The notes beneath the pieces were generated by a model that had not been told where the DNA came from, ran no database searches, and worked only from the letters and a program-made list of their open reading frames with translations. The position numbers were made by a program, and so were the translations under genes. This document shows, one piece after another, positions 1,306-64,000 of a stretch of 64,000 nucleotides of DNA (the stretch's first letter is position 1; each line of letters begins with the position of its first letter). This stretch comes from Geosiphon pyriformis uo1 (lineage: Eukaryota; Fungi; Glomeromycota), in the NCBI GenBank assembly GCA_016748015.1, contig JAAOMT010000082.1, forward strand, positions 219,483 through 283,482, given 5' to 3'.

Positions 1306-1882
1306 TTTTTTTTTATTTTTTTATTCACTTAACAAGTGAGGTCCAAACACTACCTAGTGCTATACATCAAAGAAATGATCTAAACTAGGCATCAATCATG
1401 CACTTTTCACATGTGACCAGCCACTTGGGCTGATCAGAACAACACTACACAGCTATATGAACTAAAACTGGATCACTTATATCTAAAAAAAACAAACAAA
1501 ATTTACAAAAGCCAAAATGAACACCAAAAGCATTAGTAATGCCAAGCAATTTGACCACTTCAGCAGAAAATCCCAAAGCCAAACCAGAAACCAAGACAAG
1601 AGCCGAACCATCAAGTGAAATCAATCTGTTCTTCTCCATATAAGCATGATACTTAGCATGAACTGACCAGATATCTCTCTTAAAAGCAAGACTAAGAAAG
1701 CATACAAATTTAACAATCTCTAAACCAGCAACCTTGGGATTGTAAAAGATAGAGACAGTTTTGTGAAACCAACCATTAAAAACAAAACCTTTATAAAGAG
1801 CTATAAACACAGAGAAATCAAAAACACAGGACAACAACAACTGTAATACACTTAAAGAAGAATAAGAAAAACCAGAAACCAC
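1306..1882 (-). mobile_element. 3' end of a non-LTR (LINE) retrotransposon: ORF2 C-terminus, 3' UTR and A-rich tail
   Basis: ORF 1445-1882 joins the 62243-64000 segment in frame (…WKA|VSGFS…) once element A1 and one TSD copy are removed. AATAAA and an A-rich tract end the element at about 1306-1326 on the minus strand. Confidence 0.8.
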
Positions 1883-2579
1883 TGTTACTGGAGGTTTTTG
1901 GTCTTTTTTCTTGAATATTGTTGATGTCTGTTTGTTGTAAATTCACATTTTCTAGAAGTAGTTGAACCTCCAATAACTGAATTTATCTTCAAATTATCTC
2001 TTATAATTTGAACTGCTGGGCTTATAAGTAGAATAACCAATTCCGTGCCAGTTGCTTTGTGTAGTTATATTGTAGTAAACATTAACTCTTTCTTAGGAAT
2101 TGCTCATCTGAAAGCTCACTAAAAATGTGTAGTTACTTTGCTGTGAAAGTCAATTCTTCTACAAAAATCTCATCTGTAGACTACCCTAATGATTGTAATA
2201 AAAAAATAAAAAATAAATAAAAAAAATGTAAAAGAAATAGAATTCTGTCAAGAGAAACGTTTTTTATCCAGGCCTGGAGTCACTAACAGTTTATTAAAAT
2301 TGGTAGCTAATTAATTTCAAAACGTTAGTTGTGTTGAGGGAATTTCAAGTATAATAATTTAAGGATTTGGTTTTCGAATATTTAATTTTTATTTAATTTT
2401 ATAAAAGAATGATTTGTTCTAATTAAGATAGTTAGAGTAAGATACTATGATAAAATATGAAAAGAATACATTTTCTTGAAGAGAGAAGCTTTTTTTTTAT
2501 ACAACTTGTTGTAGTACTAGTCTTTAAACTTGCATTTTTCTCTTTTTTTTAATTTGGGTGAACTAAAAATACATTTTGG

Positions 2580-3443
2580 TGTTACAGATGTTTATTTGGG
2601 TCTCAGGTCAAATAACAAACTCGTAACTTGGTACTCAAAAGCTATTTTCATTGATGATGTTCTAAAAGTGTTGTATCTGAAGGTTTTGATGGAGTCCTTT
2701 GTATAATGGACAGAGATTCAATAGTGATAGGTGTTCACATGTTCAGTTGTTTCCCAATTTCTTTCTCAGCTTGGTGGCTGGATTTATTCTGGCAGTCGTG
2801 CCCTTCTGGTAAGCTAACCAATAATATATATAAGTCTACCCTTATTTCTGGGTCTTTTACCAGGCTATCTGTGACATCAATAACTTAGTGCTTTTAATTC
2901 TCAATCAATTAGTATGCACAACAAAATCAAAAAAAGAAAGAAAATAAAATAAAGAAAATAAAATAAAAAAAATAAGCCAAGACAATGTAGTAAGTTAGTA
3001 TCCTATCAATAGCCGTGATTAAGAACTATTGTTCCAGTATGGTTAAGTATCAATTACTATCAACATGAAGTGTTGATAGTGGAGAGTAGATTGAGATATG
3101 GAATAATTATTTATTTGATGATTGAAAACTGGAAAATTGCTTAGATTAAATCTAAACTGAGAGATCTGTTTTTTTAGCTTTTAATCCTACTGCTATATAT
3201 ACATAATTGAGATTTCTCAATTTCTCAATTTTTCACAACAGGAATCCTGAGATTCCTGAAATTCTGCAATTCCTTTGAGAAAAATTCTGGAATTCTGGAA
3301 TCCTGCAATTCCTTGTAAGAATCCTGTAATTTCTGGAATCCTGTAATTCCTGAGAGGAATTCTGGAATTCCACATTTTACTACGTCTACTTTTAATTGGT
3401 TAATAACTATGCTAATATATTTCCTATATTTCTATGAGTAACA
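2580..3443 (-). repeat. B1 3' LTR
   Basis: TGTTACAG…GAGTAACA; direct repeat of 11812-12666. Confidence 0.93.
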
Positions 3444-3456
3444 TTATTCTCTTTTT

Positions 3457-4116
3457 TTAATATTGAGCTCTGTCAAAATTCAATTCTTTTAATTTTCCCT
3501 CTTGAAGTATTTCCTGAATTTCATTTTCAAGAATTACTTGTGTTATTTGAGTCTGTAATTTTTCAAATTGAGCATTGGTGATTTTTCCCAATTGATTACT
3601 GGTAACCATATCTATTGCTTTGTTGAATAGGATTTCTGGTCTATTCTGAAATGCTGTGTGTATTTGGTATATAGCTCGAGCTTGTGTGGATAAGTTGTTT
3701 TTCTCCACAAAATGTTCTAGTTGTTGTAGTATTGTTGTGTCGAATAACTGCTTTGTTTTATCCATATATAAGTTCTGGATATTCACATGTTGTCCCAAGT
3801 AAAAATAACAATAGTTTCTTGGAAATTGTTGTATCCAACAATTCCAAGTTTTTTTTGTCAACTCTTGGTATATTGACTCTTTTGTCAATTCTTTTATTGT
3901 CAATTTTACTTTTGTAATAATTTTGTCAATAGTATTTTCTGGTTTCTTCTGTTTTCTGTTTTGCAGTGTTTTTCTAGTATCTTGATATCAAATGGTTTGT
4001 TGATTGATTGTAATCTCTATTTCTTGGTGTTGGATCAATTGAAAGAGTTGTTGTGCTAATGAGTGGATATTGTCCGTAATTTCCATTTTTCCGATATCTT
4101 TTGTCACATCTACCAT
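3457..4116 (-). pseudogene. B1 accessory ORF3 (unknown function), one internal stop
   Basis: 220 codons between integrase and PPT. Homologous to 50990-51649, 31986-32643 and, more distantly, to ORF3 of A and C. Confidence 0.75.
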
Positions 4117-4140
4117 GTCTTTATATATTCTTTTGATGAA

Positions 4141-5520
4141 TTAATTTAACATGTTGTTGTCAATAATGATGATTGGTTCCAGATCTCATGGAATCTCCTC
4201 TGGTTGGACTAGTATCTTCTGTACTCTTAATTGTGGAATATTATTAGTAAATGGTGATACTGTATGGTAATATGGTTTCAGTCAATCTTCATGTGCTGCT
4301 TTGGTTAAGATTTTGTTGTTCAATCTTAATTTATAAGCTCCATTTCCAAGAATTTCTTCAATGTGAAATGGTCCATCCTATTTGGGGTTAAATTTTCCAC
4401 TCCATTGTTTTTCTGCTTTGATATGATGTAGAAGTACTTTGTCTCCAATCTTGAATTCAACTGGTTTATCTGGTAATTAGTTATTATGTTGTTCTTTCTG
4501 TTTTTCTTGTGACTTTTGTATGTTGTCAGCTGCTTTTTTTTTTGTTTTCCAGAGTTTCTATTAAGTCATATGTTCTTCTTAACAATGTTTCTTGGAAATT
4601 CTGTTTGTTATTGGTTCTGTTGGATACATGTTGACTTCTATCTTAACTGGTAATGTTGCTGTTCTACTATATACCAATTTAAATGGTGTTGCTTGTGTAG
4701 TATATTGCTTTATTGCCCGATAAGCAAATAATACTGATGGTAATAACAAATCCCAATCATTTTGATTTTCTTGGCTCAGTTTGGTTATCACTTTACACAA
4801 TGTTCTGTTAAACCTTTCAACTAATCCGTTGGTTTGTGGATGATATGATGATAATAGTGGCCTCTTAATTCCGAATCTTTGGCTTAATTCTGCTAATGTT
4901 CTGTTCACAAAATGAGTTCCTTGGTCTGAAAGTAATTCTTTTGGACATCTGTGTTGACAGATCAAATCTTGATGAACGAATTCGGCAATGAATTTTGCAT
5001 CTGCTCTTTGAATTGCTTTTGCTTCTGGCCATTTGGTAAGATAGTCTATGGCTACTGTTATGTATCTGTTTTCTCTGCTGGTGATTGTCAATGGTCCAAC
5101 TAAGTCAATTCCAATTTGATCAAATGGTTGTCTCATTTTGATTGGTCTTAATGGTTCACTGGGCCTTATTCCTCCTTTTTTTTGGCAAGCATCACAATTT
5201 TGAACATATTGGATAATGTCTGGGTACATTGATGACCAATAGTATCTTTTTTTGGCTCTTTTTATTGTGGCTTCTTTGTGAAAATGTCTTGCTGTTAGAT
5301 CTGAATGTATGTTGTACAATATTGTCTCTTTTTCTGGCTCTGTAACAACTCTGAGTGATTGATTGGGTTCTTTTTTGTTTTTCCAATAAAGTATATTTTG
5401 GTAAGTGATAAAATATTTTGATTGTTGTTTTATATGGGTTTGTTCTTTTTGAGATAATTTCTCCTTAAACAGTTGGGTATTAATATAGTGTTGGAGTTGT
5501 TGGTATTTTTGTATGTTCAT
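4141..5520 (-). pseudogene. int: B1 integrase (stand-alone ORF)
   Basis: ATG MNIQKY…, H-H-C-C (IHSD…HF…CDAC), GIDLVG/SDQG/GLVERFN DDE core and GPF motif; frameshift near 4590. Confidence 0.9.
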
Positions 5521-5582
5521 CTTTTGTTATATTTTTATTTGAATTCTTTTGGGTTTTGTTATATTTTTGGTTTGAAACATTT

Positions 5583-8500
5583 CTAGATTTGTCTTATTCG
5601 CGACAATCCGTCTGCGTTTCCATTGTCTTTTCCTTTTTTGTAATGTACTATATAATTAAATGGTAACAATTCTATTTTCCATCTTGCATGATGTCCATCC
5701 CCAAATTTTTGTTTCTGGATTGATGTCAATCCTTTGTGATTAGTGTACACATCAAATTTTTGGCTCAAGTATTCTTTCCATTTGGTTACTGTCTAATAGA
5801 TAGCCAAATGTTCCAATGCTAGTGTTCTATAGTTTCTCTCAGCTGGAGTTAGATCTCGACTTGTATAAGTTACTAAATGTTCTCTTCCATTCAGACCTCT
5901 TTGTGACAATACTGCTTTCAATGCTTGGTCTGATGCATTTATAGTAATCATGAATGGCTTGTTGTGATTGGAGTATATCAATACTGAAGCTTGAATTAGC
6001 TTCTTTCTTAGTATATCAAAAGCTTCTTGTTGTGCTTTAGTCCATTCATATTTAATGTTCTTTGCTAATAATTGATTCAGTGGCTGGGCTATTTTGGAGA
6101 AGTTTTGGATAAAGCAGTGGTAATATCTAGCAAATTCTAAGAATGCTCTTAATTCAGTGAGATTCTTTGGCTCTGGAAAGTTTTTGACTGTCTCAAATTT
6201 TTCTTGGATCCGTTTTGAGCTGTTTTTGCTTACCACATGTCCCAAAAACTGAAGTTTTGTTTTTCCAAAGAAACACTTATTAGCATTGAGCTTTAATCCA
6301 GCTTTTCTTAATCATTCAAACATCTGTTGTAAATGGTGGAGATGATTATCAAATGTTTCTGAGAATACGTTGGTGTCATCCAAGTATACTACAACTGACT
6401 TCCATAGCAAGCCTTGATATATGATCTTCATTAGCTGTTGAAATGTGGCTGGTGCATTCATTAAGCCAAATAGCATGATTTCAAATTCGAAATTCTCTTC
6501 TCTGGTAATAAAAGCAGTCTTTTCTTTGTCATCTGGGTTCATGGCTACTTGTCAATAACCACTGTCCAAGTCTAATGTTGAGAACCATTTCTTTCCTCCA
6601 AAAGCATCAAACAATTCTTGAATTTTGGGAGTCAGATAGCTGTCACCACGAGTAATACCATTGAGCTTTCTGTAGTTCACACAAAAGCAAATCTTTCCAT
6701 TCTTTTTCCGAACTAGTATCACTGGTGATAACCATTGGCTCATTGATGGCTGAATTAGCCTGTTGTCAAGCATCTGATTAATTTCTTGATAAATGATCTC
6801 ATGGCTGGCTAGTGGCACTCTGTATGCTCTTTGTTTAATTGGCATTGCATCTTCAGTCTTAATTTGATGCTAAATGATATCAGTTCTGCCAAATTCATTT
6901 TCACTGGCAAAGATGTCATTGAATTTGTTAAGCAACATTTTGAGCTGCATCTGTTGGAGTGGGTCTAAGTTATCCATGTTCATTTGCTCCAATTGTTCTG
7001 ATTGGAGCAAGCAACATTTGTTTTGTTTGTAAATTGCCTGTAATGTGGTATCGATATACTCACAAAGTTGTGGAAAGTCTGAAATGTAGTGTGGTGGCTG
7101 GTCTTCTACTTCTGTGCTTAAATGTCCAATTGTGGTTCCTTCTGGAACTTCGATGATGTCTCCAGTGTTGTTGTAGATGGGAATTTTTATGTGGCTATGA
7201 TTCTTGGCTGGCACATAGAGATTGATGAATCCAATTTTTTCTGATTTACAAAACATTGGTTCTGCTTCAAAAATTTGATCCTGATTCTTCACTTTCCACT
7301 CTATAATTACCATGTGCTGGCCATATGGCGGAATGGAAATTGGTTAACTGATGGAGATAATTTCTCTTTTGCCAACAATTTCTTCTTCTGCCATATTGAC
7401 TGGCACATCTATTCTACCTGTGGATCCAAATCCCTGTATCCTTCTTGCTGTCATCCCTAATTTTTTTCTTGTTTCCATTAACACTAATTTAGTTACTTTA
7501 ACTAGAAGTAGGAATATTGCCTGTGCTATCTTTTCATTTGGCTCAATGGTATAAGCTTTTTCTGAGTCATTTTGTAGCATAGCAATGATATTTCCTACAT
7601 ATCCTGCATCAATTATTCCTTCTCTGATGTTGACTCCCTTTTTTGCTAAACTACTCCTAGATACTAATAGAGCCATGGTGGTAGCTGGGATCTCCATTGC
7701 TACTTTCAAATCAATACTGGTGTGCGAGTGTGGTTCTAATTTGATGGCATTTTTCTCTGAATACCTCAGATCAAATTCTGCATCAGTATTATGCGTGTGT
7801 TCTGGCATAATATCCTCATCATTATCACTGAACCATTTAAGTTCTTGCTTTTTAGTAAGATTAGGAAGCGCAATATATTGCTTATAGTTTGAATTGGAGT
7901 TTGAATCTGAGTTCTTTTTGTTGTCATATTGAACCAAGCTGGAACCAGTGTTTTTGTTGTTATCATTGTCGGAGTTTGAATCGGGATTGACAATCGATTC
8001 TGATTCCAATGCACAGTTGCTAATTGGTTTGATTTTTTCTAGGATGGTGTATATCATGTGTGGTGGTGAATTGTAGATGAGATCACAATTGTCACAATAT
8101 TCAAAGTCACTGGGAATTAAGCAATAGCGACACAGCCTTGTATTCAATTGTGCTAGCCATTGTTCTTGCTTCTTTCTCATGGGTGCCAGGTTCTGATAGT
8201 GCTCATAGAATTGCTCGGGATTGTTTTCGACATTATCGAAAACATTGAAAGTTACAATGTACTTAGGTTTAGGAAGAGTAAGTGGGTTGTTTTTAATTTC
8301 CAGTAGTTTGCTGATTGTGACACCTTCTGCCATAGTGCTGGCCATTCTTCAGATTTTATGTTCGTTGTACAGGTACTTTTCCAAACATCGTAATGCTCTT
8401 TTCCAAGTGTTGTCAATGGAAGTTCTTTTATGTACCCAATCATTTATTAAAATAGTATACTGGCATGTTTTGTCACACGTTCCTCTCCATCCAGGAATGT

Positions 8501-11500
8501 CGTTCCATATTCCTTCATCTAAGAGAGTCTCTCCACAAGCTAGACATGGTGTATTATCCTATTTTCTTACTCATTTTGGTCTCCCAAAACATTTTAGAAC
8601 GTATGAGCAGCAATAGAATTTAGTTGTCATTGAATACTCCTCATCGTCATCACAGCATGTACCCATCGACGACAATTTCTTGCTGCAATTGATGCATATC
8701 AGTTTGGGTCGGCGATAAGTCAATAATAGTTGTTGACCATAGGTGTATGAGATATAAGTGTTGTTGGCTTGAGTGTTTTCTTTCTCTCTTTCTTTCCCTT
8801 TTTCTTTTTCTTCTTTCTACTTCTAACTCAATGGTTCTTCCTGTTTGTTGTCAGTCCAGGTCAAATCATCTGTCTCCCAAGTCAGTTCTTCTTTTTGCTT
8901 TATCTTGGGGTTGTTATTCTATGAGAGTATTGGTGGCAGTTTGTTGTGATCTGGGTCAGCCCACAAAACTTGGTAAGCTTTCCAAGTCGGTTTCTTTTTT
9001 TCTTCTTTCAGCTCAATCAATGGTTCTTCCTTTAAAAAAACCTTGAAATGGCCACATGTGGCTGGCATATATGTGTGTTGGTTATTAAATGTCAGCTGGA
9101 GCTCTTGTATTGTCTAGTCTAAAACGGTCTTGGTTTTGGACAACCAGTTGTTGCCCACTAAGACTTGGTATTGCATGGCTTCTATTACCAAGACTTTGAT
9201 TGGTACTGTGATACCATTGACTTCGATTAAGAAGGCATTGATTTTGCCAATAGGCATTTTGGTTGTTCTATTGGCTGTGATGATTCTGGCACTGGCAGCT
9301 CGATTAACTTGGCAATCTAATTGGTTCATGAGTTGTCATGTGATGATACTGCCTACTGAACCGCTATTGAGAATCAATTTGATGGATTGACCATCAACTT
9401 TGGCATCTGTGTACATTGTGGTGATGGGTTTTTCATTGAGAGCAGCTCTACTAAATAATGGGGTATTTGACAGCTCTTCAGTCTCAAATGAGAAGATAGT
9501 GGTTAGTGATTTGTCATTAGTGACTGTTGCTGGCAGAATATTGCTAATAAGTGTTTGTTGTTTTTGGGTGGGTTCCTGGTTATTGGCTGAAGCATTTTCT
9601 GGGGTGACCAAGAGACTTAAATAGTTCTGGGAATTCAGGTTCTGGGGTTGACCAGTACCCAAATTCTGCTGGCGTAATCCAGATGGTTGCTGTAAAGAAC
9701 TGAAGATCAATTGATGGACTACCATCGCTGATCTCCAGTTCTGTTGAGTCATTCTCAGTCTTTGTGTTCTATTGTGTGGTAAGTTTTGGGGCAGTGTTTG
9801 AATTTGTTGGGGTTAATAGATTATTTGTGGCTGTGGTTGTTAATAAATTACTTGTGACTGCAATTAATAAATTGGAGCTTGATATATTGGAGACTGATAG
9901 ACTGATGACTGCATCACTGGTAGATAAGTGAGTTGGTTTTGATTTGGCTACTGGTTCGGAGTTTGGAACTGGCAATTAGGGTTTTGATATTGATTTCCCA
10001 ATCATTAGTTATTTAAGCATTGGCAGCAATTGACTTGTATGTATCCTTGTCTACCACAGTAGTGACAAACATGCATTTTTTGTTGACACTGTTGATTGGC
10101 CACAAATGATGAACGTGGCTGATTTTGGACACAATTGGAGTTTCCCTGATTGTTGTGTCATTGGAACAGTTGATAGATTGCTCAATTGTTAGCTAAGTAT
10201 CCCTCTAATTTTTAATTAATGGAATTACTGAATTGTTTCAATTTAGAATTCAATTCAGATGATCTGTTTATTGTTAGATTTATGGCTTGGGCATGGTTGG
10301 CTTTAAGTTCAACTGATTCGAAATCTCAGGCATGTGTAACTGCTGCTTGAAGGTTGGCTGGATGTAATGGATATATGCGTTGCAAGATGCTGCTTTGTAA
10401 GCCGCGAATAAACTGGTTCAGGATTTGTGGTGCTGTGAAGTAGTTAACATTTATGGCTTGAATTTGGCACAGATTGCGATGAAAGCGTCCCAAGTAAGTG
10501 GTAACTGCTTTTGTTTCTTCTTGTCTAATGCTGATAAAGATGTTGGTTAGGCAATTGATACTGTTATTATTATTAAAGTACTGGAGAAATTCCTGTTTGA
10601 ATACAGTAAAATCCTGAGGCTTGTTAATCAAGCTTTGGTATCATGAGTCAGCAGTATCCTGGAGAAAATATGAAATGGCCTGTAGAACATGTGCATCATT
10701 CCATCTGTTGGCTGCAATGGCTTTCTTAACATTGTTAAGCCATACTTGGGCATCGTCTTCCTCGCCAGTGAACTTCTCAATTTTGGTGATAAGTGCATAG
10801 ACCATTTGTTGAACTGGTTGAATTGGTTGCTGAGGTGATACTTGAAGTGGTTGAATTGGCTCACTGATCAGCTTAATTGGTAGTTGATTGATGACGATTA
10901 CTGGAGATAAGTTTTGCTGATTAATTAATTTGGAGTTTGGATTGTTCTGTTTTTGATGATTTGGAGTTTTGATTTCCGAATTTTTTAGGTTTAGATTTTG
11001 CTAAGTTTGAAGATTCGGGGTTTCAACTTCTGGATTTTTAGTGATTAGGTGCTGGTAAGTGAATTCTTGATCTTTTGATTCTTCTTCTTCTTTTTCTGAT
11101 TCCATTACTTCCCATGGATCAGAAATTCCGAAATTTGGTAGAGGCGGTGGTGATCAAAGTCCTAATGGGATTGATGATCGCGAATTAAATCTCTCAAAGT
11201 ATTCACTGTATGGTCCTAATAATTCTGTTTTCTTTGTCTACTTTGGAATGAAAATTGTCCAAATGCTGATGTCACAGTTGATGAGAATGCATCTGTTAAT
11301 GGTATGTTGATGGCGCTTTCAGGTATATAATAGTAGAATGGGTTGCTTGGAGATTCAATTCTGTTTTTCTTCCAACTAGGTGGTTGTATCTTTCTGGGTG
11401 TTACTGCTGGTGTTTGTAGTTTTCTTTTGTCTTTACTAGCTTATGTAATTGGATATCTTTGTTGGGTGTGATGTTTAATTTCTTTGTTGATCTCAGTGAT

Positions 11501-11749
11501 GATGGATGCAAAATTATGATTTGTTGGTAGGTTGGTGTTTTGAATTAATTCTCTATAGAAAGTTTCCCTTGCTGATTCAGTATTCACTGGTGTTCCTAAC
11601 AAAGAGGAAATTTTTTTATTGATATAGAAATTGAAGGCTGATTCAGTAAATATATGATTGTGGTTTAATCCCAAGTATTAACAATAGTGTTGAAATAAAG
11701 ATTTTGCAAATTCTAAATGGTTTGCTCCTATATTTTCTGATTCTGCCAC
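5583..11749 (-). pseudogene. gag-pol: B1 gag-pol (Gag, zinc knuckle, protease, Cys-rich domain, dUTPase, RT, RNase H), degenerate
   Basis: LILNSGS protease motif, dUTPase motifs at ~7410-7840, VVVYLDD RT and RNase H ending NADGLSRIRQI*; fragmented by stops. Confidence 0.9.
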
Positions 11750-11811
11750 TTTTGGATGATGTTTGTTGGTGCTGGTTCTCTGTAGGATTATATTTCACAG
11801 GAAGCACCAAA

Positions 11812-12666
11812 TGTTACAGATGTTTATTTGGGTCTCAGGTCAAATAACAAACCTGTAACTTGGTACTCAAAAGCTATTTCTGTTGATGATGTTCTGAAAG
11901 TGTTGTATCTGAAGATTTTGATGAAGTTCTTTGTATAATGAACAGAGATTCAATAGTGATAAGTGTTTGCGTGTTCAGTTGTTTCCCAATTTTTTTCTCA
12001 GCTTGGTGGCTGAATTTATTCTGGCAGTCATGCCCTTCTGGTAAGCTAACTGATAATATATATAAGTCTACCCTTATTTCTGGGTCTTTTACCAGGCTAT
12101 CTGTAACATCAATAACTCAGTGCTTTTAATTCTCAATCAATTAGTATGCACAACAAAATCAAAGAAAGAAGGAAAATAAAATAAAAAAAATAAAATAAAG
12201 AAAATAAGCCAAGGCAATGTGGTAAGTTAGTATTCTGTTAATAGCTGTGATCAATAGCTATTGTTCTAGTGTGGTTAATTATCAATTACTATCAACATGA
12301 AGTGTTGATAGTGGAGAGTGGATTGAGATATGGAATAATTATTTATTTGATGATTGGGAACTGGAAGGTTGCTTAGATTAAATCTAAACTGAGAGGTCTG
12401 TCTTTTTAGCTTCTAATCCTACTGCTATATATACATAATTGAGATTCCTCAATTCCTTAATTCCTCAATTCTTTACAACAGGAATCCTGCAATTTTTTTA
12501 AGAAGAATCCTGGAATTCTGAAATTCTGCAATTCCTTGTGAAAATCCTGTAATTCCTGGAATCCTGCAATTCCTGAGAAGAATTCTGGAATTTCACATTT
12601 TACTACGTTTACTTCTGATTGGTTAATAACTATGCTAATATATTTCCTATATTTTTATGAGTAACA
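11812..12666 (-). repeat. B1 5' LTR
   Basis: Followed on the minus strand by the PBS TTTGGTGCTTCCTGTGA. Confidence 0.93.
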
Positions 12667-12924
12667 TTAGCAAACTACAAGTTATTTCACTGAATTATTT
12701 GATTATTTCAGCAAATTTTCATTAATTTCGACAAATTTTGTCTATATTAAATGGTTCAGGGTATTGTGTAATTTGATCATCTCAATTTCTAGAGTACAAA
12801 TTAGGTTATTGGTTGAATTATGATAATTGCTAATTTGATTAAAATAATAAGTAATATTTGATTTGATAATAATATGCTAATTAATAATAGGAATTATGAG
12901 GGTAATTTCATGCTAATTTAATAG

Positions 12925-13632
12925 CTAAAATTCTACTGGTAACATAATCTCCTCCTCAAGACTGAGCTCTGTCAAAGTCCAAGCACTATCTGTAATATTA
13001 AGATAGTGGTCCAAAATAATTAAAGTAATTTGGTCTGAAAATTGTTGAAATTTCAGTTCTGTGAGCTTTCCAATGTATTGAATCTTCATTGGTTGGAGTA
13101 TTGGGTTTTGTAGAATGTTTTCACACATATTGAATAGATCATAGAGTCTATAAGCTGCTCTAAGTTTGTAGTAAATGTTTGTTGGTCCAGCTGCTGTCTT
13201 GAATTCATTGTGAATTTGTTTTTGTATAGCTTTAGAAATGATGTTTGTTGCTTCAAATTCTAATTTTTGTTTATTAAGTGTTTTTCCAATATAAAAGTAT
13301 CTATAAATAAGGATATGTTTATTGTTCTGTTTATTGAAAAGTAGTAATAGTTTTTGTTGAAATATGGCATTTGGTGGAATGTTAATAGGGGCAAATAAGA
13401 GGTTTTCTTTTAAAGCTTGTTTTAAAAGTTCTGGTAATTAACTTTCAGAATAACTTTTTGTTTTTCTTTTATAGGGATAATAATTCTGAGAATTATTCAC
13501 TATTAGGGCTGTGGTTTTTTTCTGAATGTAATTAATTTGACTTCCATTAATTATTATAGATAAGTCAGGAAGTGTTTTCAAAGCTAGCATTAATTTTTGG
13601 GATATTTGTTGGATATTTCGGAGAATAATCAT
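12925..13632 (-). pseudogene. A1 accessory ORF3 (unknown function), broken by stops
   Basis: Fragments 13438-13632 and 12925-13128 match the intact A2 ORF 34529-35236. Confidence 0.75.
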
Positions 13633-51649: not shown

Positions 51650-51662
51650 AAGGAAGAAATAA

Positions 51663-52524
51663 TATTACTCATAGAAATATAAAAAATATATTAGCATAAT
51701 TATTAGCCAATCAGAAGTAAGCGTAGTAAATGTGGAATTCCAGAATTCCTCTCAAAAATTACAGAATTCCAAGAATTTCAGAATTCCCAATGAGGAATTG
51801 CAGGATTTTAGAATTGTAGGATTCCTCTCAAAGGAATTGCAGGATTCCAGGAATTCCAGAATTCTTGTTGTGAAGAGTCGAGGAATTGAGGAATCCTAAT
51901 TATGTATATATAGCAGTAGTATTAGAAACAGAAAAGACAGAATTGATACTACAGAATCCTTAGCCAAAAAACCAATCATCAAATAAATAATTATTCTATT
52001 TCTCAATCCACTCTCCACTATCAACCCTTTATGTTGATAGTAATTGATACTTAATCATGCTGGAACAATAGCTCTTGATCACAGCTATTGACAAGATACT
52101 AATGTACCAAATTGCCTTGGCTTATTTCTTTATTTTTTTTAATTTTATTTTCTTTCTTTCTTTGATTTTGTTGTTATATACTAATTGAGTAAAAAAATTA
52201 AGCACTGAGTTATTAATGTCAAGGATAGCCTGGTAAAAGACCCAGAAATAAGGGTAGAATTATATATATATTAACAGATAGCTTACCAGAAAGACACGAC
52301 TGTCAAAGTAAATCTGGCCGCCAAGCTGAGAAAGAAATTAGGCATAATTGCAACTCCAGAAAAACTACTACTATCAACACTGAATCTCTGTCTATTATAC
52401 AAAAAATTCCACAACAAAACCTTCAGATACCATACCTTTCGCACATCATCCACGAAAGTAGCTTTTGAGTACCAAGTTACAGGTTTGTTATTCAATTCAA
52501 CAACAGAAATAATTACCTATAACA
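51663..52524 (+). repeat. B3 3' LTR
   Basis: Terminal TG mutated to TA; ends TATAACA. Confidence 0.92.
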
Positions 52525-52577
52525 TCATCACTTTGAATTTGTTGTTTGCTGTATTATTTCTATAGGAGAGCACTAAA

Positions 52578-53506
52578 TATTACTGGAGGTTTTTGGTCTC
52601 TTTTCTTAAATGTTGTTGATGCCTGTTCATTGTGAATTCACATTTTCTGGATGTGGTTGAACCTCCAATAACTGAATTTATCTTCAAATTATCTTCTATA
52701 ATTTGAACTACTGGGCTTATAAGTGGAATGGCCAATTCCTTGCCAGTTACTTTATGTAGTTACATTGTAATAAACATCAACTCTTTCCCAGGAATTGCTT
52801 GTCTGGAAGCTCACTAAAAATGTGTAGTTATTTTGCTGTGAAAGTCAACTCTTCTACAGGAATCTTGTCTGTAGGCTACCCTAATGATTGTAATAAGAAA
52901 AGAAAAGAAAAATAAAAGAAATGTAAAAGAAATAGGATTTTATCAAGGGAAACGTTTTTTTATCCAGGCCTGGAGTCACCAACAGTTTACTAAAATTGGT
53001 AGCTAATCAATTTCGAAATGTTAGTTGAATTTTGGGAATTTTCCAAGTACAATAATTAAAGAATTTGGTTTTTTGAATTATTTGATATTTATTTTTTTTT
53101 GTGTGTATAAGAACAGTTTTAAGAGATAAATCTAAAGTAAGATACATTTTCTTGAAAAAAAAAGCTTTTCTTTTATACAACTTGTTGTAGTACTAGTCTA
53201 TGAACTTGCACTTTTTCTCTTTGCTCAAATTTCAGTGAACTAAAGATACATTTTGGTGAACTACAAGTTATTTCGCTGAACTATTCATAATTTCGGCAAA
53301 TTTCTGTAAATTTTGGCGAATTTTTGAATATTACAAAGTTCAAAGTATTGTGTAATTTGATCATCCTACTTTCTGTTATATTAATTAGATTATTTTAATT
53401 GAATTGTGATATGTAATAATTTGAAATAATATTAATATATTAATTAATTATAGGAATTATAAGGGTAATTTCATGCTAATTAATAGCTAAAATTTTACTG
53501 GTAACA
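52578..53506 (-). repeat. A2 5' LTR
   Basis: Followed on the minus strand by PBS TTTAGTGCTCTCC. Confidence 0.92.
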
Positions 53507-54040
53507 ATGGCTACTGCAATGTATCTGTTTTCTCTACTGGTAATTGTTAATGATCCAACTAAGTCAATTCCAATGTGATCAAATGGTTGTTCCACTTTGA
53601 TTGGTCTTAGTGATTTACTGGGTCTGGTTCCTTCTCTTTTTTGACAAGCATCACAATTTTGAACATATTAGATGATGTCTAGATACATTGATAGCCAATA
53701 GTATCTTTTTCTAGTTTTTTCCATAGTTACTTCTTTATGGAAATGTCCTGCTGTTGGATCTAAATACATATTGAATAGTATTGTCTCTTTTTTTGGCTCT
53801 GTAATTACTCTAGTTGATTGATTTGGATCTTTTCTATTCTTTTGATAAAGTATATTTTGGTAAGTAATAAAGTATTTTGATTGTTGTTTAATACTATTTC
53901 ATTCTGATTGAGATAATTTCTTCTTGAACTGTTAAGTATCTATATAATGTTTGAGTTGTTGGTATTTTTGTGTGTTCATCTTTTGTTATATTTTTATTGG
54001 GTTTGGTTTGGTTTTGTTATATTTTTGGGTTAAAATGTTC

Positions 54041-57000
54041 TTAGATTTGTCTTATTCATAACAAACCATTAGCATTTCCATTGTCTTTTCTCTTTCTATA
54101 ATGTATGGTATAAGTATATGATAAGAGTGCTATTTTCCATCTTGATTGTTTGCCATCTCCAAATTTTTGGTTTTGGAGTAATATCAGTTCTTTGTGATCT
54201 GTGTACACCTCAAACTTCTGGCTCAAGTATTTTTTCCATTTTATGACTGCCCAATAGATTGCTAAGTGTTCTAATTTTGGTGTTCTATAGTTTTTTTTGG
54301 CTGAAGTTAAATCTCAGCTGGTATATGTGACTAAATGTTCCCTTCCATCCAATCCTTTTTGGGATAGCACTGCTCCCAATGCTTGATCTGATGTATCAGT
54401 GGTGATAATGAATGGTTTACTGTGATCTGGATAGATCAATACTAGAGCTTAAATAAGCTTTTTTCTTAAGATGTTAAATGCTTCTTGCTAAGTTTCAGTT
54501 CATTTGTATTTTACATTCTTGGTTTGGAGATAATTAAATGGCTGAACTATCTTAGAAAAGTCTTTGATGAAGTGACAATAATAGTCTGCAAATCCCAAGA
54601 ATGATTTTAACTCCATTATGTTGGTCGGTATTGAAAATTTCTTTACTATCTCTATTTTATCCAAGTCTGTCTTGATGCCATCTTTGCTTACTATATGTCC
54701 CAAAAACTTGAGTTCTGTTTTGTTGAAGAAACACTTTGTTGTATTCAATTTTAATCCAGCTCTTCTCAGTCTTTTAAACACTTGTTGGAGATAATATAGA
54801 TGGTTGTCAAATGTTTTTGAGAACACATTGGTGTCATCCAGATAAACTACTACTGATTTCCACAATAAGCTGGTATATACTATTTCTATTAGCTATTGAA
54901 ATATGGCTGGAGCATTCATCAAGTCAAATAACATGACTTCAAACTCAAAATTTTTTTCTTTCATCATAAAAGCCGTTTTTTCTTTGTCTACTGGATCTAT
55001 GGCTACTTGTTAGTATTTACTGTCTAGATCCAGTGTTGAAAACCATTTATTTTCTTCAAAAGCATCAAATAGCTTCTGGATTTATAGAGTTGGATAGCTG
55101 TCTCCATGAGTAATTCCATTAAGTTTTCTGTAGTCTACACAAAATCTGATTTTTCTATTCTTTTTCCAGACAAGTACTACTGATAATGACCATGGGCTCA
55201 TAGATGGCTGAATTAGCCCATTGTCAAGCATTTGGTTGATCTCTTAATGAATGATCTCATGACTAGTTAGTGGTATTCTGTATGCTTGTTGTTTGATTGA
55301 CATAGTATCTTTAGTCTTGATCTGATGTTGAATAATATCAGTTCTACCAAATTTGTTTTTGCTAATGAAGATGTCATTGAAGTTGTTCAGTAACATCTTG
55401 AGTTGTATACATTGAAGTGGATCCAAATTTTCTATGTTCATTTGTTCTAATTGTTCTGGTTGGAGCAAATAACATTTATTTTGTCCATAGATTGTTTGTG
55501 ATGTGATATCCACATATCCACATAGCTATGGAAAATCTGGAATAATACTTGGTGGTTGATTTTCTAATTCAGTGCTCAAGTATTCAATGATGGTTCCCTC
55601 TGGTATTGTGATGGCATCTCTTGTTGTGTTGTAAATAGAAATTTTGATATGGTTGTGGCTTTTGGCTGGTATGTGGAAATTGATAAGTCCAATTTCTCCT
55701 GATTCACAAAGGCTTGTTTCTGCTTTAAAAATCTGATTCTCATCTTTCACTTTTTTTCTATAACTACTATGTACTGGTCATATGGTAGAATAGAAATTGC
55801 TTGACCAGTTGAAATAATTTCTCCTTGGCCAACAATTTCTTTTTCTGCCATATTGACTGGTATATCTATTCTACCCGTTGAACCAAATTCTTGTATCCCT
55901 TTGGCTGTAATCCCTAATTCTTCTCTGTTTCCCACTGATACTAGTTGAGCTATTTTCACTAGAAACAGGAATATTGCCTGTGCTATCTTTTCATTTGGCT
56001 CTATAATGTAGGCTTTTTCTGAGTTGTTCTGTAGCATAGCAACAATATTTCCTACATATCTTGCATCAATTATCCCTCCTCTAATGTTGATTCTCTTTTT
56101 TGCTTAACTACTCCTAGATGCTAATTGAACCATTGTTGTTGCTAGAATTTCCAGTGCTATTTTGAGATCAATGCATGTGTGTAAATGTGGTTCCAATTTG
56201 ATGGCATTTTTGCCTGAATACCTCAGATCAAACCTGGTATCAGTATTATGTGCACATTTTGGCATGATCTTTTCCTTATTATTGCTGAACCATTTTAATG
56301 TCTGCTCTTTGGTGAGATTAGAAAGTGTGATATATATTTTTGGGTTTGAATCGGAGTCCAAATTGCTGTTTTTTTTGTTGCCATTTTGGACAGAGCTGGT
56401 GTTTTTATTGTCATCATTGTCAGAGATTGAATCGGGATTAAACAATGATTCTGATTCCAATGCGCAGCTGCTAATTGGTTCAATTTTTTCTGAGATCATA
56501 TAGATTATGTGTGGTGGTAGATTGTAAATAAAGTCACAATCATCACACAATTGAAAATTACATAGAATTAAACAGTGATCACATAATTAGGTGTTGATTT
56601 CCTTCAAGCATTGCTCTTGCTCTTCTCTTGTGAGTGCTAGATTTTAATAGTGTTCATGGAATTTTTCTGGGCTGTTTTTCAAGTCAAGAAAGACATCCGG
56701 GTTGAGAACCAAAATACTGTCTGTTGGTTCTGGAGAGTTGTTTTTGATCTCCAGAATTTTACTGGGTGAAGCACCTTCTACTTTGGCATTGGTTATTTGC
56801 CAGATCTCATCCTTGTCGTGTGGATAACCTTCTAAATAAGAGATTGCTCTGTGCCAGGCTGCTGTGATGGGTGTTTCATGACTCACCCAGTTGCTAATGA
56901 GGATTGTGTATTGGCACAAAGTGTTACACGTTCTTTCTTGACTAGGAATGTCATTCCACATCCCTTTGTCAAGCAGTTGTTCTCCACAAGTGAGACAGAG

Positions 57001-60000
57001 TTCATTGTTCTTGTCTCTTAGGGTACTCATAGCATTCGCGGTAGCATGGTTTACAGTAGTAATGGGTGCACATTCAGTAGTCTTCATCTAGTGCAACCCA
57101 AGCTCCCATTGAGGACAACTTCTTGTTGCAGTTTTTATACTTGAGAGGAATACGCAGTGGTTCTGGTCTGGTGTTAGTCGAGTAGGATCTTCTCCAGCCA
57201 TTGGTGCTGGCTTTGGTGGTTTTATTAGTTTCAAGTCAGTTTTCTTCATTTCCTTTCCTTTTTTTTTGATTGCTTTTCTTCCACTCTTAGGTTGATGAAT
57301 CTTCTTGATTATTGTTGATTTCCCAGATTTGGTTAGTGTTCCAGGTAAGTTCTTCTTTTCTTTTTCTTTTTTCTTGGTTGTTGTCATCCCAGGCGAGTAT
57401 TGGCAGCAGTTTGTTGTGGTCAACATTGGTCCACAATATTTGGTACGCTTCTCAGGTGGGTTTCGGCTTCTCTTCTTCCAAGTCGATTAGTGGTGCTGGT
57501 GTGTGACTGGGTTTGAAATGGCCACACGTCACTGGTACTTATGTGTGTTGGCCATCTCGATTGATTTGCAACTTTTGTGTGATCCAGTCAAGCATTACAT
57601 TTGTTTTGGACAGCCAGTTATTACCAACTAGAGCTTAGTATTGGGTGGCTTCCATGACTAGTATCTTGATTAGTACTATGATGTCATTGATTTCAATGAA
57701 AAGGTTGTCAATTTTACCAATTGGGGTCTTGGTAACCCCATCAGCTGTGATTATCTTGGTGCTAGCAGCTCAATTAACTTGGTGACCTAATTAATCCATA
57801 AGTTGTCTTGTAATGATGCTATCTGCTGAACCACTATCAAAAATGAGTTTGATGGTATAGCCATCAATTTTCACATCAGTATACATGGCAGTGATTGATT
57901 TTTCTTTGAGTGTGGCTCCACTAAACAACGGGACTTCCGAGAGTTCATCAATTTCAAAGGGAAATATTGTGACAAGTGACTCGTCTTTTGTGATGGTTGC
58001 TGGTAAAATGTTGCTGGTAAGTGTGGGTAATTGATTGGATTTCAAGTGGTTGGATGTGACGTTTTCTGGAGTAATTAGAAGACTTAAATAGTTCTGGGAA
58101 TTTGGGTTTTGAGTATGACCAGTACCCGAATTCCGAGAATGTGATTCAGTTGGTTATTAAAAGGAGCTGGGGATCAGTTGATGGACAACTATCACCTATC
58201 TCCAGTTTTGAGTGACTCTTAATCTGGGGTTTCCTAATGTCATCTGAGCTGGGTGTGATGATAGTGTTAGAACTATGGGTGTCTAATAGATAATTTGTGG
58301 CTGTGGTTGATAAATTGCTGGTGGCTGCAGTTGATAAACTGGAAGTTGATATACTGGTGATTGATAGATTGGTGGCTGCATTATAAGCAGGTAAGTCGGT
58401 TGATATTGGGTTGAGTTTGTTTGATAATTCTGGGTTGGAAACTGGTGATCGAGGTTATAATATTGATTTCCCAATTGTTAGTTATTTAAATGTTGTTAGC
58501 AGTTGATTTGTATGTGTCCTTGTCTACCACAATAGTAGTAAATGCATGTTTTATACTGCCACTGTTGATTGGTTGAAGATGAGGGACGTAATTGATTCTG
58601 GAAATAATTCGCATTTTCTTGATTATTGCATTGTTGTAAAGGCCAATAAATTACATGATTGTCAGCTAAGTATCTTTCTAGTTTCTGATTGATTGAATCA
58701 TTGAATTGTTTTAATTTGGAATTCAATTCAAATGATCCATTCATTACTAGGTTTATAGCTTGAGTGTAATTAGCTTCTAGTTCAGCTGTTTCAAAATCTC
58801 GGACATGTGTGACCACAGTTGGTAGGTCTACTGGGTGCATTGGACATACTTGTTATAGAATGCTGCTGTGCAAGCCTCTAATAAATTGATTCAAAATCTG
58901 TGGTGCTGTAAAATAATCAGCTTGAATTGCCTGTATCTGGTGCAAATTTTAATGGAAACATCCCAAATAAGTAGTAACTGCTTCAGTATCTCTTTGCTTA
59001 ATAGTGGTAAAGGTGTTAGCTAATTTGTTGATGCTGTTATTGTTACTAAAATATCTTATAAATTCAGTTTTGAATTCATTAAAATTTTGGGGTTTTATAG
59101 CGAAACTTTGATACCACGTGTCAGTGGTATCCTGGAGAAAATAGGGAATGGTTTGTATTGCTTGGGCGTCATTTCATCTGTTGGCTGCAATGGTTTTTTC
59201 CATATCATTCAGCCATAGTTGAGTGTCATCCTCTTTGCTGGTAAAATTGTTGAGTTTTGTAATTAGTGCATAAGCCATTGGATCTAAGTTGGGTTGTTGT
59301 GGTGGCTGTTGAAGTGATTGTTGTTGCACTAGTTGTTGAGATGGTAGTTGAAGTGGCTGCTGTATGGATTCAGCTATTGGATTAATTGGTGGTTGATCAA
59401 TGACAATTACTAGAGGTAAGTATAATTGATTATTTAGATCAGGGTTTCAATTATCCTGAGTTGGCAGTGTCTGAATATTCAGAGTTTCAATTTCTGGATT
59501 TTCTGGATTTAGATTTTGCTGGGTTTGAGAATTCAGGGTTTTAAATTCCGGGTTTTCAGTAATCAGGTTCTAGTAAGTGAATTCTTGATTCTCGGATTCT
59601 TTTTTCTCTTTCTCTTCTTGTTCCCCTTCCAATTCAGTAATTTCTCACAAACTTGCTGTTCTGAAGTCTGGTTGAGGTGGTGTTGACCGGAATCCTGATG
59701 GCATGGGCAATCATGATTTAAATCCCTCAAAATATTTGCCATATGGTCTTAATAACTCCATTTTTTTTTGTTTACTTTGGAATAGGAATTGTCTAAATGA
59801 TGATGCTGTGTTTGATGTGGACACACCTGCTGATGTAATATTGATGGTGCTTCCAGGTGTGTGATGATATAATGGATATGGTGGGAATTCAATTCTTTGT
59901 TTCTTCCAGGTTGGTAGTTGTATCCCTTTAAGCGTTATTGCTTGTATTTGTAACCTTCCTTTGCCTTTGTCTGCGTAGGTGATAAGGAATTGTTGTTGGA

Positions 60001-60283
60001 TGTATCTTTCAATAGTTTGGTTGATTTTTCTGATTATTGGTGCAAAATTATAGTTCCTTGGTAAGTTGGTGTGTTAGAATAATTCTGTGTAAAAGTTTTT
60101 TCTTGCTGTTTCAATGTTAATTGTTCCTCCTAAGCAGTCAGTGATTTTGTTGTTGACATAAAAGTTGAAGTCTGATTCTGCTGGAAAATGATTACTGTTT
60201 AATCCTAGTTGTTGGTTGTATTGTTGAAACAAAGATTTGGCAAATCCTAAATGGTTGGCTTCTATGTTTTCTGGTTCTGCCAC
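54041..60283 (-). pseudogene. gag-pol: B2 gag-pol, degenerate
   Basis: GTG start at 60283, CYYCGRQGHIQINC-like knuckle, LIFDSGS, dUTPase ~55865-56295, VVVYLDD 54500-54865. Confidence 0.9.
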
Positions 60284-60345
60284 TTTTGGATGGGTGTTGT
60301 TGGTGCTGGTTCTCTGTAGGATTATACCTCATAGGGAGCACCAAA

Positions 60346-61226
60346 TATTACAGATAATTATTTGGGGTCTTAAATCAAATAATAAATCTGTAACTTGGTG
60401 CTTTTAGTATCTTGACAATATAAGTACTATTAGTAGGTTGCTGTTATCTGAAGATTTGATTAATCTGAAGGTTTTGGATTAAGTTCTTTGTATAATGGAC
60501 AGAGATTTTTTGTTAATATTATTCACAGTTTTTTTGTAAGTTGTTTCCCAATTTCTTTCTTAGCTTGGTGGCCAGATTTATTCTGGCAGTTATATCCTTC
60601 TGATAAGTTATCCGATAATATATATAATTCTACCCTTATTTCTGGGTCTTTTATCAGGCTACCCGTGATGTCAATAACTCAGTGCTTTTAATCTTTAATC
60701 AATTAGTATACAACAAAAATCAAAGAAAGAAATAAAGAAAATAAAAAAATGTAAAGAAATAAGCCAAGGCAATTTGCAAGTTAATATCCCATTAATAGCT
60801 GTGATTAAGAGCTATTGTTCCAGTGTGGTTAAGTATCAATTACTATCAACATAAAGTATTGATAATGGAAGTGGGTTTTTAAAATAGCAAATAGTTATTT
60901 ATTGTGGTTTGGAAAGTTGTCTAGATGAAATCTAAACTGAGAGGTCTGTCTTTTCAGCTTCTAATACTACTGTTATATATACATAATTGAGATTTCTCAA
61001 TTCCTTAATTCTTTATGACAGGAATTCTAGAATTTTTGGAATCTTGTGATTCCATTGAGAGGAATCCTGCAATTCTAGAATTCTGCAATTCCTCATGTGA
61101 GAATTCTGCAATTTCTGGAATTCTGCAATTTCTCTGAAAGGAATCTTGGAATTCCTCATTTACTATGTCTACTTCTGATTGGCTAATAACTATGTTAATA
61201 TGTTTTCTATATTTCTATGAGTAACA
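60346..61226 (-). repeat. B2 5' LTR
   Basis: Colinear with 20857-21303+31539-31972. Confidence 0.9.
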
Positions 61227-61278
61227 TTGTCACTTTGAAGTTGTTATTGTTGTGTTATTTTTGTAAGAGAGCACCAAA

Positions 61279-62238
61279 TGTTACCAGAGATTTTTGGTCT
61301 CTTTTTTTGAATATTGTTGATGTCTGTTTGTTGTAAATTTACGTTTTCTAGAAGTAGTTGAACCTCCAATAACTGAATTTATCTTCAAATTATCTTCTAT
61401 AATTTGAACTGCTGGGCTTATAAGTGGAATGGCCAATTCTGTGCCAGTTGTTTTGTGTAATTACATTGTAGTAAACGTTAACTCTTTTTCAGAAATTGCT
61501 CATCTGGAAGCTTACTAAAAATGTGTAGTTACTTTGCTGTGAAAGTCAACTCTTTTACAGAAATCTTGTCTGTAGACTACTCTAATGATTGTAATAAGAA
61601 AAGAAAAAAAATATAAAAGAAATAGAATTCTGTTAAAGAAAACGTTTTCTATTCAGGTCTGGAGTCATTAACAGTTTATTGAAATTGGTAGCTAATCAAT
61701 TTCAAAACGTTAGTTGTGTTGAGGGAATTTCAAGTGTAATAATTTAAGGATTTGGTTTTTGAATATTTAATTTTTATTTAATTTTGTAAAAAAATAATTT
61801 GTTCTAATTAAGATATTTAGAGTAAGATACTATGGTAAGATATGGGAAGGATACATTTTCTTGAAGAGAAAAGCTCTTCTTTTATACAACTTGTTGTAGT
61901 ACTAATTTTTGAACTTGCACTTTTTTTTTTTCTTCAATTTGGGTAAACTAAAGATACATTTTGGCAAACTACAAGTTATTTTACTGAACTATTTGATTAT
62001 TTCAGCAAATTTTCATTAATTTCGGCGAATTTTGACTATGTTAAATGGTTCAAGGTATTGTATAATTTTATCATCTCAATTTCTAAAGTACAAATCGAAT
62101 TATTGGTTGAATTAAGATAATTGCTACTTTGACTAAAATTATAAGTAATATTTGATTTAATAATAGTATGCTAATTAATAATAAGAATTATGAAGGTAAT
62201 TTCATGCTAATTTAATAGCTAAAATTCTACTAATAACA
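61279..62238 (-). repeat. A1 5' LTR
   Basis: TGTTACCAGAG…TAATAACA. Shares diagnostic variants (GTTAGTTGTGTTGAGGG) with the 1883 copy rather than with the A2 LTRs. Confidence 0.92.
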
Positions 62239-64000
62239 CTGCCTTCCAGAAATTTACATAAGATTCCAATAACTGACATCGAACAGATTCATCAACTTTA
62301 CAAGAAAACACATGAACTGACACCTCTACATTATCACAATATAAGCACAATACACTAAGATAGAGTCTATTATAAAGACACTTCTGAATGGCAATTAGCA
62401 GCCAATAGTACAAAGCTTTTATAAAGTAAGTGTATACATTGGCTAAAAGTCTGCTAGTGAAACCTGCCATACTAACAATAAGCAAAGCCAATCAACCTCA
62501 GAAAGCAAATTGTCTGCCAAAAACTTAGAACCAAAACCAATCTTCCAGCATGTATGACAAACTGAATAATAAATATTATAGACAAAATGTCTGGAATTGC
62601 CAGAAACAATATTACCATCAACTATTATAAAGTGTTTACTTAAGTGAGAAGAAAGATATCAACCAGAGAGAAAAGCAGCACCAGCTATTATGTCAGTGCA
62701 CTCATTTCCTGAAATGTCAGAGTAATCTTTTATTTTATGCCAGCTAATCTCCAAATTTTTACTGCAAATAACATTAACAATATGATGATGTTTGACCCAA
62801 CACTAATTATGAAAGTTGGAACACACTAGATCCAATTCTGACTTATAAGCATCCAGAACAAATTGACTATCTGAAAACAATTGAATAGAGCTTGATAAGG
62901 GAACACACTCTAGAGCCAATGCAATAGTCTGCAATTCCACTAAAGTAGACGACATTAAATCTGACACACCAACACCCAAACCCAAATTAATATTCTTGAA
63001 AAAAACAGTAGTGCTAACTCTACAGCTGACTGTGTTCAGATTACTAAGAAACCTATCCATATACACTAACAAATTACTAGTATCAGTGCACAAGAAATGA
63101 TCACAAACAGACATAAAATCATTAGATTCAAGAATGTTCAAAGAACCAACACCACTTAAAACCAAGAAAATAGTAGAAAAAAAACTCATACCATTGAGAA
63201 ATACAATAGAAAGCTCAAACCACTCAAGAACAAGGCTGTGGGGGTTCAATCTCTTCTAACATTTGAAGGTGTACCAATCAAAAACAGCACTATGATGATC
63301 ATGAAGTTAATCCACAAAGGCAATACCATATCACTAGAGAAAAAAAAAAAACCTAAAAAACTTTAACTCATTCAGAACAGCAAACATTAGAACTCTACCA
63401 TGAAACTAAAAAAAATTGGCCAAAGAGCCACTCAGAAACAAATTGCAATCAAAAAAAAACACAAACCATGTCCACCAGAAAGTTATTAAGAGCATTGACA
63501 TGAATACAAACAGGAAAACTCAATAGATAAACAAGGTACCAATACAGAACTTGCAAGTTATGGAATCTGTGAAAAAACAAACAATCCAAGATATCATTAG
63601 AGTTTGCAAAATTAACAAGAGAAGCAACTTTACTCTCAGATTGAACTTAAAAGAAAAATTTCAAACCATAAAAAAAAGGATAGTAAATTGTATCACTAGG
63701 AAAATTGAGTGATAGACCAAATTTAAGCTTCAAGCTCTTATGAATCAAAACATTTCACTTGTTGCACACATCAATAAGAACAAAGCTGAACTGTATTCTA
63801 TAGCTGACTATAGAATGAAGAACTACCCATACTAAATACAAGAACTGCTTATCTAAGACAGCTTTTCTCAGAACCAGATTTGTGAAAAAACAAATATCTG
63901 AATTTGTCTTAGCCAAACTAGGCTTTAAAAGACCCTCAGTTAAAAAAAAAATACCCAAATACCAATAAGATTCACTCTTTTTAGCAATAGAAATTGGCAA
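62239..64000 (-). mobile_element. Non-LTR (LINE) retrotransposon, degenerate ORF2: end of RT, RNase H, CCHC zinc finger; continues past the window
   Basis: YWYLGIF (RT thumb-proximal YLG) in 63755-64000. RNase H-like VYMD…SSTLVELQTIALALE…LFSDSQ in 62803-63249. CLYCDNVEVSVHVFSC in 62219-62491. Many stops and frameshifts. Confidence 0.8.

Follow-up and report, generated by a model that had tools for sequence, protein, structure and literature searches.

CpG-centred target sites of nested Ty3/Gypsy retrotransposons in Geosiphon pyriformis

Background

The Ginger1 DNA transposons duplicate 4 bp of target DNA on insertion, and in 112 Hydra elements this target site duplication (TSD) was reported to be CCGG in 75% and CCGT/ACGG in 24% (Bao et al. 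2010, PMC2836005). Their ends read TGTNR, and the same report describes an integrase with a YPYY region, an H2C2 zinc finger, a DDE core and a GPY/F motif. Subgroups of the Drosophila errantiviruses target TATA, CGCG or ATAT, the CGCG target falling, by the order of listing, to the ZAM subgroup (PMC5408687). Retroviruses with a 4-bp TSD, namely prototype foamy virus (PFV), murine leukaemia virus (MLV), porcine endogenous retrovirus (PERV) and xenotropic MLV-related virus (XMRV), favour a flexible pyrimidine-purine (YR) step at the target centre (Serrao et al. 2015, PMC4422553). The arthropod retrotransposon CopiaMBD is associated with CpG-dense methylated regions (PMC6673714), and the account of GingerRoot mentions a GC-rich bias only (PMC6839031). 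A CpG-centred motif is therefore not new, being preceded by Ginger1 (PMC2836005) and by the CGCG subgroup of errantiviruses (PMC5408687). Here we describe a window of 64,000 nucleotides from Geosiphon pyriformis uo1 (assembly GCA_016748015.1, contig JAAOMT010000082.1, positions 219,483 to 283,482) in which six long terminal repeat (LTR) retrotransposons, designated A1, A2, B1, B2, B3 and C1, are nested, four of them securely at CpG-centred sites.

The coding sequences place all six Geosiphon pyriformis elements among the Ty3/Gypsy LTR retrotransposons, an assignment that follows from the set of gag, protease, dUTPase, reverse transcriptase (RT), RNase H and integrase found in all six. The Ty3/Gypsy order of gag, protease, RT, RNase H and integrase is kept throughout, with dUTPase between protease and RT and a further open reading frame (ORF) in every element (in A2 and C1 recognized by similarity). 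Direct LTRs with TG...CA ends, a primer binding site (PBS), a polypurine tract (PPT) and a TSD are present, several ends being altered by G>A or C>T. A flanking repeat matched a protein of Geosiphon pyriformis at 100%; each of the nine matches in that search came from Geosiphon.

Like Ginger1, the window elements have a 4-bp TSD, with a CG centre that is secure for four of the six. An exact match to the Ginger1 TSDs is seen only at the C1 site (CCGT) and at a metagenomic relative, L041 (ACGG), whereas the CCGC and TCGC targets of the window differ; the outer bases are variable (CCGC, TCGC, CCGT), so the specificity is looser than that of Ginger1. Unlike Ginger1, described with terminal inverted repeats of 40-270 bp and a single transposase without RT, the six elements have LTRs of 0.86-1.1 kb together with gag, protease, dUTPase, RT and RNase H. 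The Ulp1 or OTU domain described at the C terminus of Ginger1 was found neither in the scanned window ORFs nor in the 120 nearest integrases listed. The host also differs, being a CpG-depleted fungus; the window has 34% GC and a CpG observed/expected ratio (o/e) of 0.26, which agrees with the statement of an initial annotation that CpG is scarce in this DNA. The CGCG errantiviruses, which are Gypsy LTR elements too, recognize a specific palindromic sequence of 4 bp containing CG, but the centre of their target is GC rather than CG and their host and lineage are others. Drosophila is described as lacking DNA methylation (PMC6673714), and no env-like match was found in the window elements. The 4-bp stagger and the flexible central YR step are shared with the retroviruses, and PFV integrase was the second-best solved relative, after that of Ty3, but the retroviral preference is reported as weak and not CpG-specific. 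CopiaMBD has captured a methyl-CpG-binding domain (MBD) and shows a regional bias, whereas no MBD was found in the window elements and their signal is base-exact. Among the papers listed in our searches none deals with the target sites of Gypsy elements from Glomeromycotina, which is weak evidence of absence because most subscription papers and Repbase records lay outside the search.

Target site duplications of six nested elements

Comparison of the window with itself resolved six LTR elements, each about 10 kb long and nested one within another. The outermost, A1 (1883..62238, minus strand; LTRs 1883-2579 plus 12671-12944 and 61279-62238; LTR divergence 9.3%), contains B1 (2580..12666, minus; LTRs 2580-3443 and 11812-12666; 7.8%) and B2 (20857..61226, minus; LTRs 20857-21303 plus 31539-31968 and 60346-61226; 10.5%). 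Within B2 lie C1 (21304..31534, plus; LTRs 21304-22404 and 30460-31534; 9.9%) and A2 (33577..53506, minus; LTRs 33577-34548 and 52578-53506; 5.5%), and A2 contains B3 (42410..52524, plus; LTRs 42410-43281 and 51663-52524; 7.4%).

The initial annotation listed six 4-bp TSD pairs, and all six are present at the element ends. Read on the plus strand, left copy before right, they are CCAC (1879-1882) and CTGC (62239-62242, followed by C at 62243) for A1, in a repeat resembling a long interspersed nuclear element (LINE); TTGG (2576-2579) and TTAG (12667-12670) for B1, in an A1 LTR and with a YR centre; TCGC (20853-20856) and TTGT (61227-61230) for B2, about 50 bp inside the PBS-side end of A1; CCAT (21300-21303) and CCGG (31535-31538) for C1, in a B2 LTR; ATGG (33573-33576 and 53507-53510) for A2, inside the B2 integrase gene; and TCGC (42406-42409) and TCAT (52525-52528) for B3, at the same site as B2 but in A2 and in opposite orientation. 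Four bp was the best length, with 9 mismatches in 24 positions and a single transversion, compared with 14/18 (11 transversions) for 3 bp and 20/30 (16 transversions) for 5 bp; lengths of 2, 3, 5, 6 and 7 bp were rejected, each being far worse. The mismatch rate between TSD copies is 37.5%, as against 5.5-10.5% between sister LTRs of the same age. All TSD centres (12/12 copies) are CG, TG, CA or TA, that is, YR steps, and on the plus strand the right TSD is followed by C in six of six, as had been annotated.

Three of the five distinct sites have a CpG origin that can be traced. The C1 site is empty in five other B LTRs, which read CCAT, CTAT, CTGT, TTGT and TCAT; decay of a CpG in both directions at this site indicates that CCGT is the right target and that the G of CCGG is a later transversion. 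At the A1 site, where the CA/TG centre points to CCGC, the codon in question encodes Ala in two of three informative paralogues and Met in the other one, which fits CCGC, a target that the initial annotation had taken to restore the LINE codons GCG GTT; the reading frame is open with either TSD copy, so that the frame alone does not discriminate. At the B2 and B3 sites CG is still present in both left TSD copies.

The B2 and B3 insertions hit one symmetric sequence, GTCGCC, at the same base of A1 and A2. B2 and B3 are 76.6% identical and in opposite orientations, and for these reasons a shared origin was rejected and the site, as annotated, must have been used twice independently. GTCGCC is the sole G-N-CG-N-C among 87 detectable CpGs in 9,419 aligned A1/A2 positions. 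Under a rule of CpG alone such a coincidence would be expected about once in a hundred per pair, while a preference for the flanking bases makes it likely.

Statistical support

The six LTR pairs, with 5,507 aligned dinucleotide pairs, served as an age-matched null, a dinucleotide pair being called strictly CpG-derived if one copy reads CG or if CA stands opposite TG. By this measure 96 of the 5,507 (1.74%) are strictly CpG-derived; both copies show a YR step in 1,221 (22.2%). Four of the six TSD pairs have strictly CpG-derived centres (P = 1.3e-6), or three of the five distinct sites (P = 5e-5), in agreement with the annotated claim that chance is unlikely. Backgrounds from five element-element alignments ranged from 0.9 to 2.1%, and an assumed background of 4% still gives P = 6e-4. 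Fitted to the six pairs with the paralogues left out, a mixture model gave a CpG fraction of 0.32-1.0 or higher, depending on the null. CpG survival in the LTRs was estimated at 0.345, with which the retention of CG in 3 of the 12 TSD copies is consistent. Nearly all differences between paired LTRs are transitions (450/467), with C>T in every context and not at CpG alone, which suggests broad cytosine deamination or non-CG methylation; for this reason TG/TA and TG/TG pairs are weak evidence for CpG. The CpG-centred bias is real and, within a small sample, statistically solid.

Relatives outside the window

The element was found in one DNA run, and its family is highly repeated, with 13,687 contigs aligning to 1.2 kb. 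Of 80 metagenome loci examined, most were internal or had collapsed LTRs and two yielded credible one-sided flanks: L041 is flanked by ACGG and then C, its LTR end inferred from a 6-bp inverted repeat, and L047 by CTGT and then A, its LTR end confirmed by its other LTR. Four more distant Gypsy loci on probable eukaryotic contigs in records of metagenome-assembled genomes (MAGs) served as controls, being the four clean LTR pairs among loci L081-L105 (L096, L099, L100 and L102 were left out). Their TSDs are CATA, AAAG, GATC and GATT, which argues that a CG centre is not general to this type of integrase. Five contaminated assemblies yielded no further LTR flanks, and scans of IMG/VR gave no match. 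Several prokaryote MAG records include long CpG-poor contigs with Gypsy-type integrases (L085, L086, L089-L091, L096-L100, L104, L105), four with intact LTR pairs, which are probably host contamination.

Several observations weigh against a strict CpG rule. The window sample consists of five distinct sites, the G-N-CG-N-C pattern is partly post hoc in that it was drawn in part from these same sites, and G at the mirror position before the left TSD occurs in two of six insertions, both at one site (1/5 sites). At the B1 site every one of the four A LTRs has TTGG (the left TSD is itself among the four), and a CpG origin there rests on neighbouring repeat units that read TTTCGGCGAA, so that TCGG as the B1 target is unproven. 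At the A2 site the codon begins with AT in all four B/C integrase copies, and of 116 matched homologues 86 have Thr at this position, 16 have Met, 8 Ile and 3 Val, with Ser or a different residue in the remainder. ACGG, which the initial annotation had called the weakest case and taken to restore AVD in the integrase, is thus disfavoured, and ATGG was probably never ACGG. Outside the window, 33 contigs leaving an A-family LTR end have the majority sequence A-T-A-G followed by T, with an agreement of 0.43; this is a consensus of majority letters from one family, in which letters may be weighted differently between contigs. The simulated probability of a T-A majority at the centre is 0.0005 if all targets are CpG and decay is that of the window, 0.05 at 70% CpG and 0.22 at 50% CpG, compared with 0.47 for older decay, 0.92 if YR alone is preferred and 0.20 for background. 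The T-A majority followed by T thus speaks both against a strict CpG rule and against a general occurrence of C at +5, and is better matched by a YR preference, a mixture or older decay. A single contig from a second run has the flank ATGC with T before the TSD. Flanks from L005 (GAGG), L037 (TCCT) and L046 (TAAA) were dropped, their LTR ends having a 5-bp match only, and would count on the same side if real.

In sum, the annotated view that all six pairs reconcile to CpG targets was too strong: CCGT and CCGC, through their paralogues, and TCGC, through its retained CG, stand for four of six insertions (three of five sites), while the B1 and A2 sites are only compatible with it. The proposed (G)NCGNC preference is supported as a CpG centre, probably with G/C at the symmetric flanks, on the strength of the LTR-pair null, the paralogous empty sites, the unique GTCGCC and the flanks of two relatives, but not as a strict rule.

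Target selection and alternative explanations

The best explanation, to which we give a probability of roughly 60%, is that the intasome cuts with a 4-bp stagger and kinks the centre of the target, where CpG is the preferred YR step, and makes some contact with the outer G/C, both copies of the target then being methylated and decaying independently. The integrase would likely read the target sequence itself, in the form of a bendable pyrimidine-purine centre, CpG most of all, and would likely favour G and C at the positions that adjoin the duplication. Such a preference would be located in the intasome without need for a methyl group, and would be strong without being absolute, applying to perhaps half or more of insertions. 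Judging from the loss of CpG, methylation probably exists in Geosiphon and the TSDs were probably methylated by the host after insertion; deamination of the two copies, independently and at about the rate of LTR CpGs, would account for the mismatches now seen in five of the six pairs.

The strongest competitor, which we regard as unlikely, holds that the integrase needs just a flexible YR step within a 4-bp stagger, as in PFV or MLV, and that the excess of CpG reflects a small sample and one local hotspot. It accommodates the YR centre of every TSD copy and the T-A majority of the 33 contigs, does at least as well at the A2 site (likelihood ratio 0.4) and at the B1 site (0.8), and has behind it the generality of a central YR among retroviruses with a 4-bp TSD (PMC4422553). 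The retroviral enrichment of YR is, however, given as just about 63% above random in that study, and strictly CpG-derived pairs make up only 7.9% of LTR pairs that are YR in both copies, so that against a YR preference the observed centres have P = 5e-4 (4/6) and 4e-3 (3/5), values that rise to 0.007 and 0.03 when the background is made generous on purpose. This reading also leaves the two hits at GTCGCC and the ACGG flank of L041 unexplained.

Somewhat less probable again is that the intasome prefers methylated CpG, through contact with 5-methylcytosine or through a reader, and is thereby steered into silenced repeats. All six insertions lie in repeats whose CpGs have decayed as methylated ones would, a related arbuscular mycorrhizal fungus is reported to have high CG methylation on transposable elements (bioRxiv 2021.03.30.436303), and CopiaMBD is a precedent for a reader (PMC6673714). 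However, CpG decay follows insertion and is therefore silent on the methylation of the target at the time of insertion, and the window consists almost wholly of transposable elements, so that nesting is no test of targeting to methylated repeats. The precomputed Pfam assignments of the 120 nearest integrases listed include no chromodomain, and neither chromodomain nor MBD was found in the scanned proteins, the broken C-terminal part of the window integrases being read by eye only. The ORF that follows the integrase had no Pfam match and resembled no named family convincingly in the protein atlas. The further suggestion that integration falls into CpG-richer young transposons was not borne out: the LTR elements that were hit, A1, A2 and B2, are the CpG-poorest (o/e 0.14-0.17), and C1, B1 and B3 (0.24-0.47) are unhit, a comparison confounded by insertion order in that the latter three may just be the latest arrivals.

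Least probable is that chromatin or a tethering protein sets the sites (for example at the open leader by the PBS or at LTR repeat units) with CpGs incidental, for although an LTR contains, or lies at most about 50 bp from, four of the five nested insertions and detectable CpGs are somewhat denser at A ends (16, 11 and 11 per kb, compared with 4-10), a local CpG density below about 2% is too low for three of five base-exact CpG centres, and A1, too, has a CpG-centred target although it inserted into a LINE-like repeat.

The integrase and its relatives

The favoured explanation places target recognition in the integrase. The B1 integrase gene (4267..5520, minus strand) encodes a YPYY-like N-terminus, H2C2, a DDE core and a GPF motif, with no chromodomain seen, and is broken by stops. 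The window integrases matched PF17921 (H2C2) and PF00665 (DDE core), and the GPF motif was read in B1 and C1. In the YPYY-type motif upstream of the zinc finger, judged by eye, the three aromatic positions are present; the proline is missing in B1, B3 and C1, but most of the aligned relatives have it. In B1 and B3 (4267-5520, minus, and 49583-50839, plus) the integrase seems to form an ORF of its own, RNase H being closed by a stop and followed by an integrase that starts with Met, and most of the 120 nearest integrases listed are stand-alone proteins of about 400-440 amino acids, with fused gene models also existing.

The closest named integrases among the matches listed are from Rhizophagus. 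Two scallop proteins combine an integrase with Ulp1, the architecture of Ginger1, one of them also having a weak PHD match, and the B1 integrase is 45% identical to one of these over 214 amino acids. A quick tree of 52 rows placed the window and Glomeromycotina integrases, L041, L047 and the integrase-Ulp1 proteins on one side of a split with 100% support in the Shimodaira-Hasegawa-like approximate likelihood ratio test (SH-aLRT), and the four controls on the other. The tree is unrooted and has long branches in the shared set of 25 rows, so that a place on the same side of the split is not equivalent to sisterhood with Ginger1. That a putative Glomeromycotina LTR clade shares with Ginger1 an inherited recognition of G-N-CG-N-C, and selects its methylated form without a reader domain, is a doubtful proposition at present.

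Other features of the elements and the window

The dUTPase domain lies in the interval between protease and RT (7344-8348, minus; 46746-48041, plus; 38187-39164, minus), with matches in all six elements. The extra sense ORF of about 170 amino acids occupies the interval between integrase and PPT (3457-3987, minus; 12925-13437, minus), again with matches in all six. After a 2-nt spacer the PBS at 43282-43300 (plus) begins with TGGTGCTC, and the other five have the same start; this sequence may resemble the 3' end of elongator tRNA-Met. No tRNA gene was found in the window, and a different PBS is common to many of the metagenome relatives. The LTRs of the A family contain degenerate repeat units (34230-34420 and 61900-62100) with the core noted above for the B1 site, and near 3240-3370 the B LTRs contain an array resembling GGAATTCCTG. 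In the public annotation, gene model G9A89_007814 (window 1448-1900) appears chimeric: the LINE-like repeat forms its C-terminal part, and its N-terminal part matches the extra ORF of B1 together with the LTR of A1. To the left of the LINE-like piece, in window 1-1080, CpG is higher (o/e 0.61 for 1-1878, nearly all of it before 1330), and an AT-rich stretch lies at about 1080-1330.

Biological implications

Base-level target specificity is uncommon among LTR retrotransposons, and one review calls it exclusive, among them, to the errantiviruses (PMC5408687). A CpG-centred target in a fungal clade near Ginger1 would suggest that such a preference has crossed the boundary between retrotransposons and DNA transposons. 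If recognition of methylated CpG were indeed shared with Ginger1, the elements would be aiming themselves at silenced repeats, while deamination by the host destroys the target sites and hides the TSDs. Five of the six elements have no matching TSD pair, and for this reason pipelines that require exact TSDs would likely miss or misjudge them. LTR elements are reported to make up 41.2% of the Geosiphon genome (PMC11952901), and the finding bears on this share: nesting at CpGs would limit the damage done by insertion, and deamination would deplete the targets.

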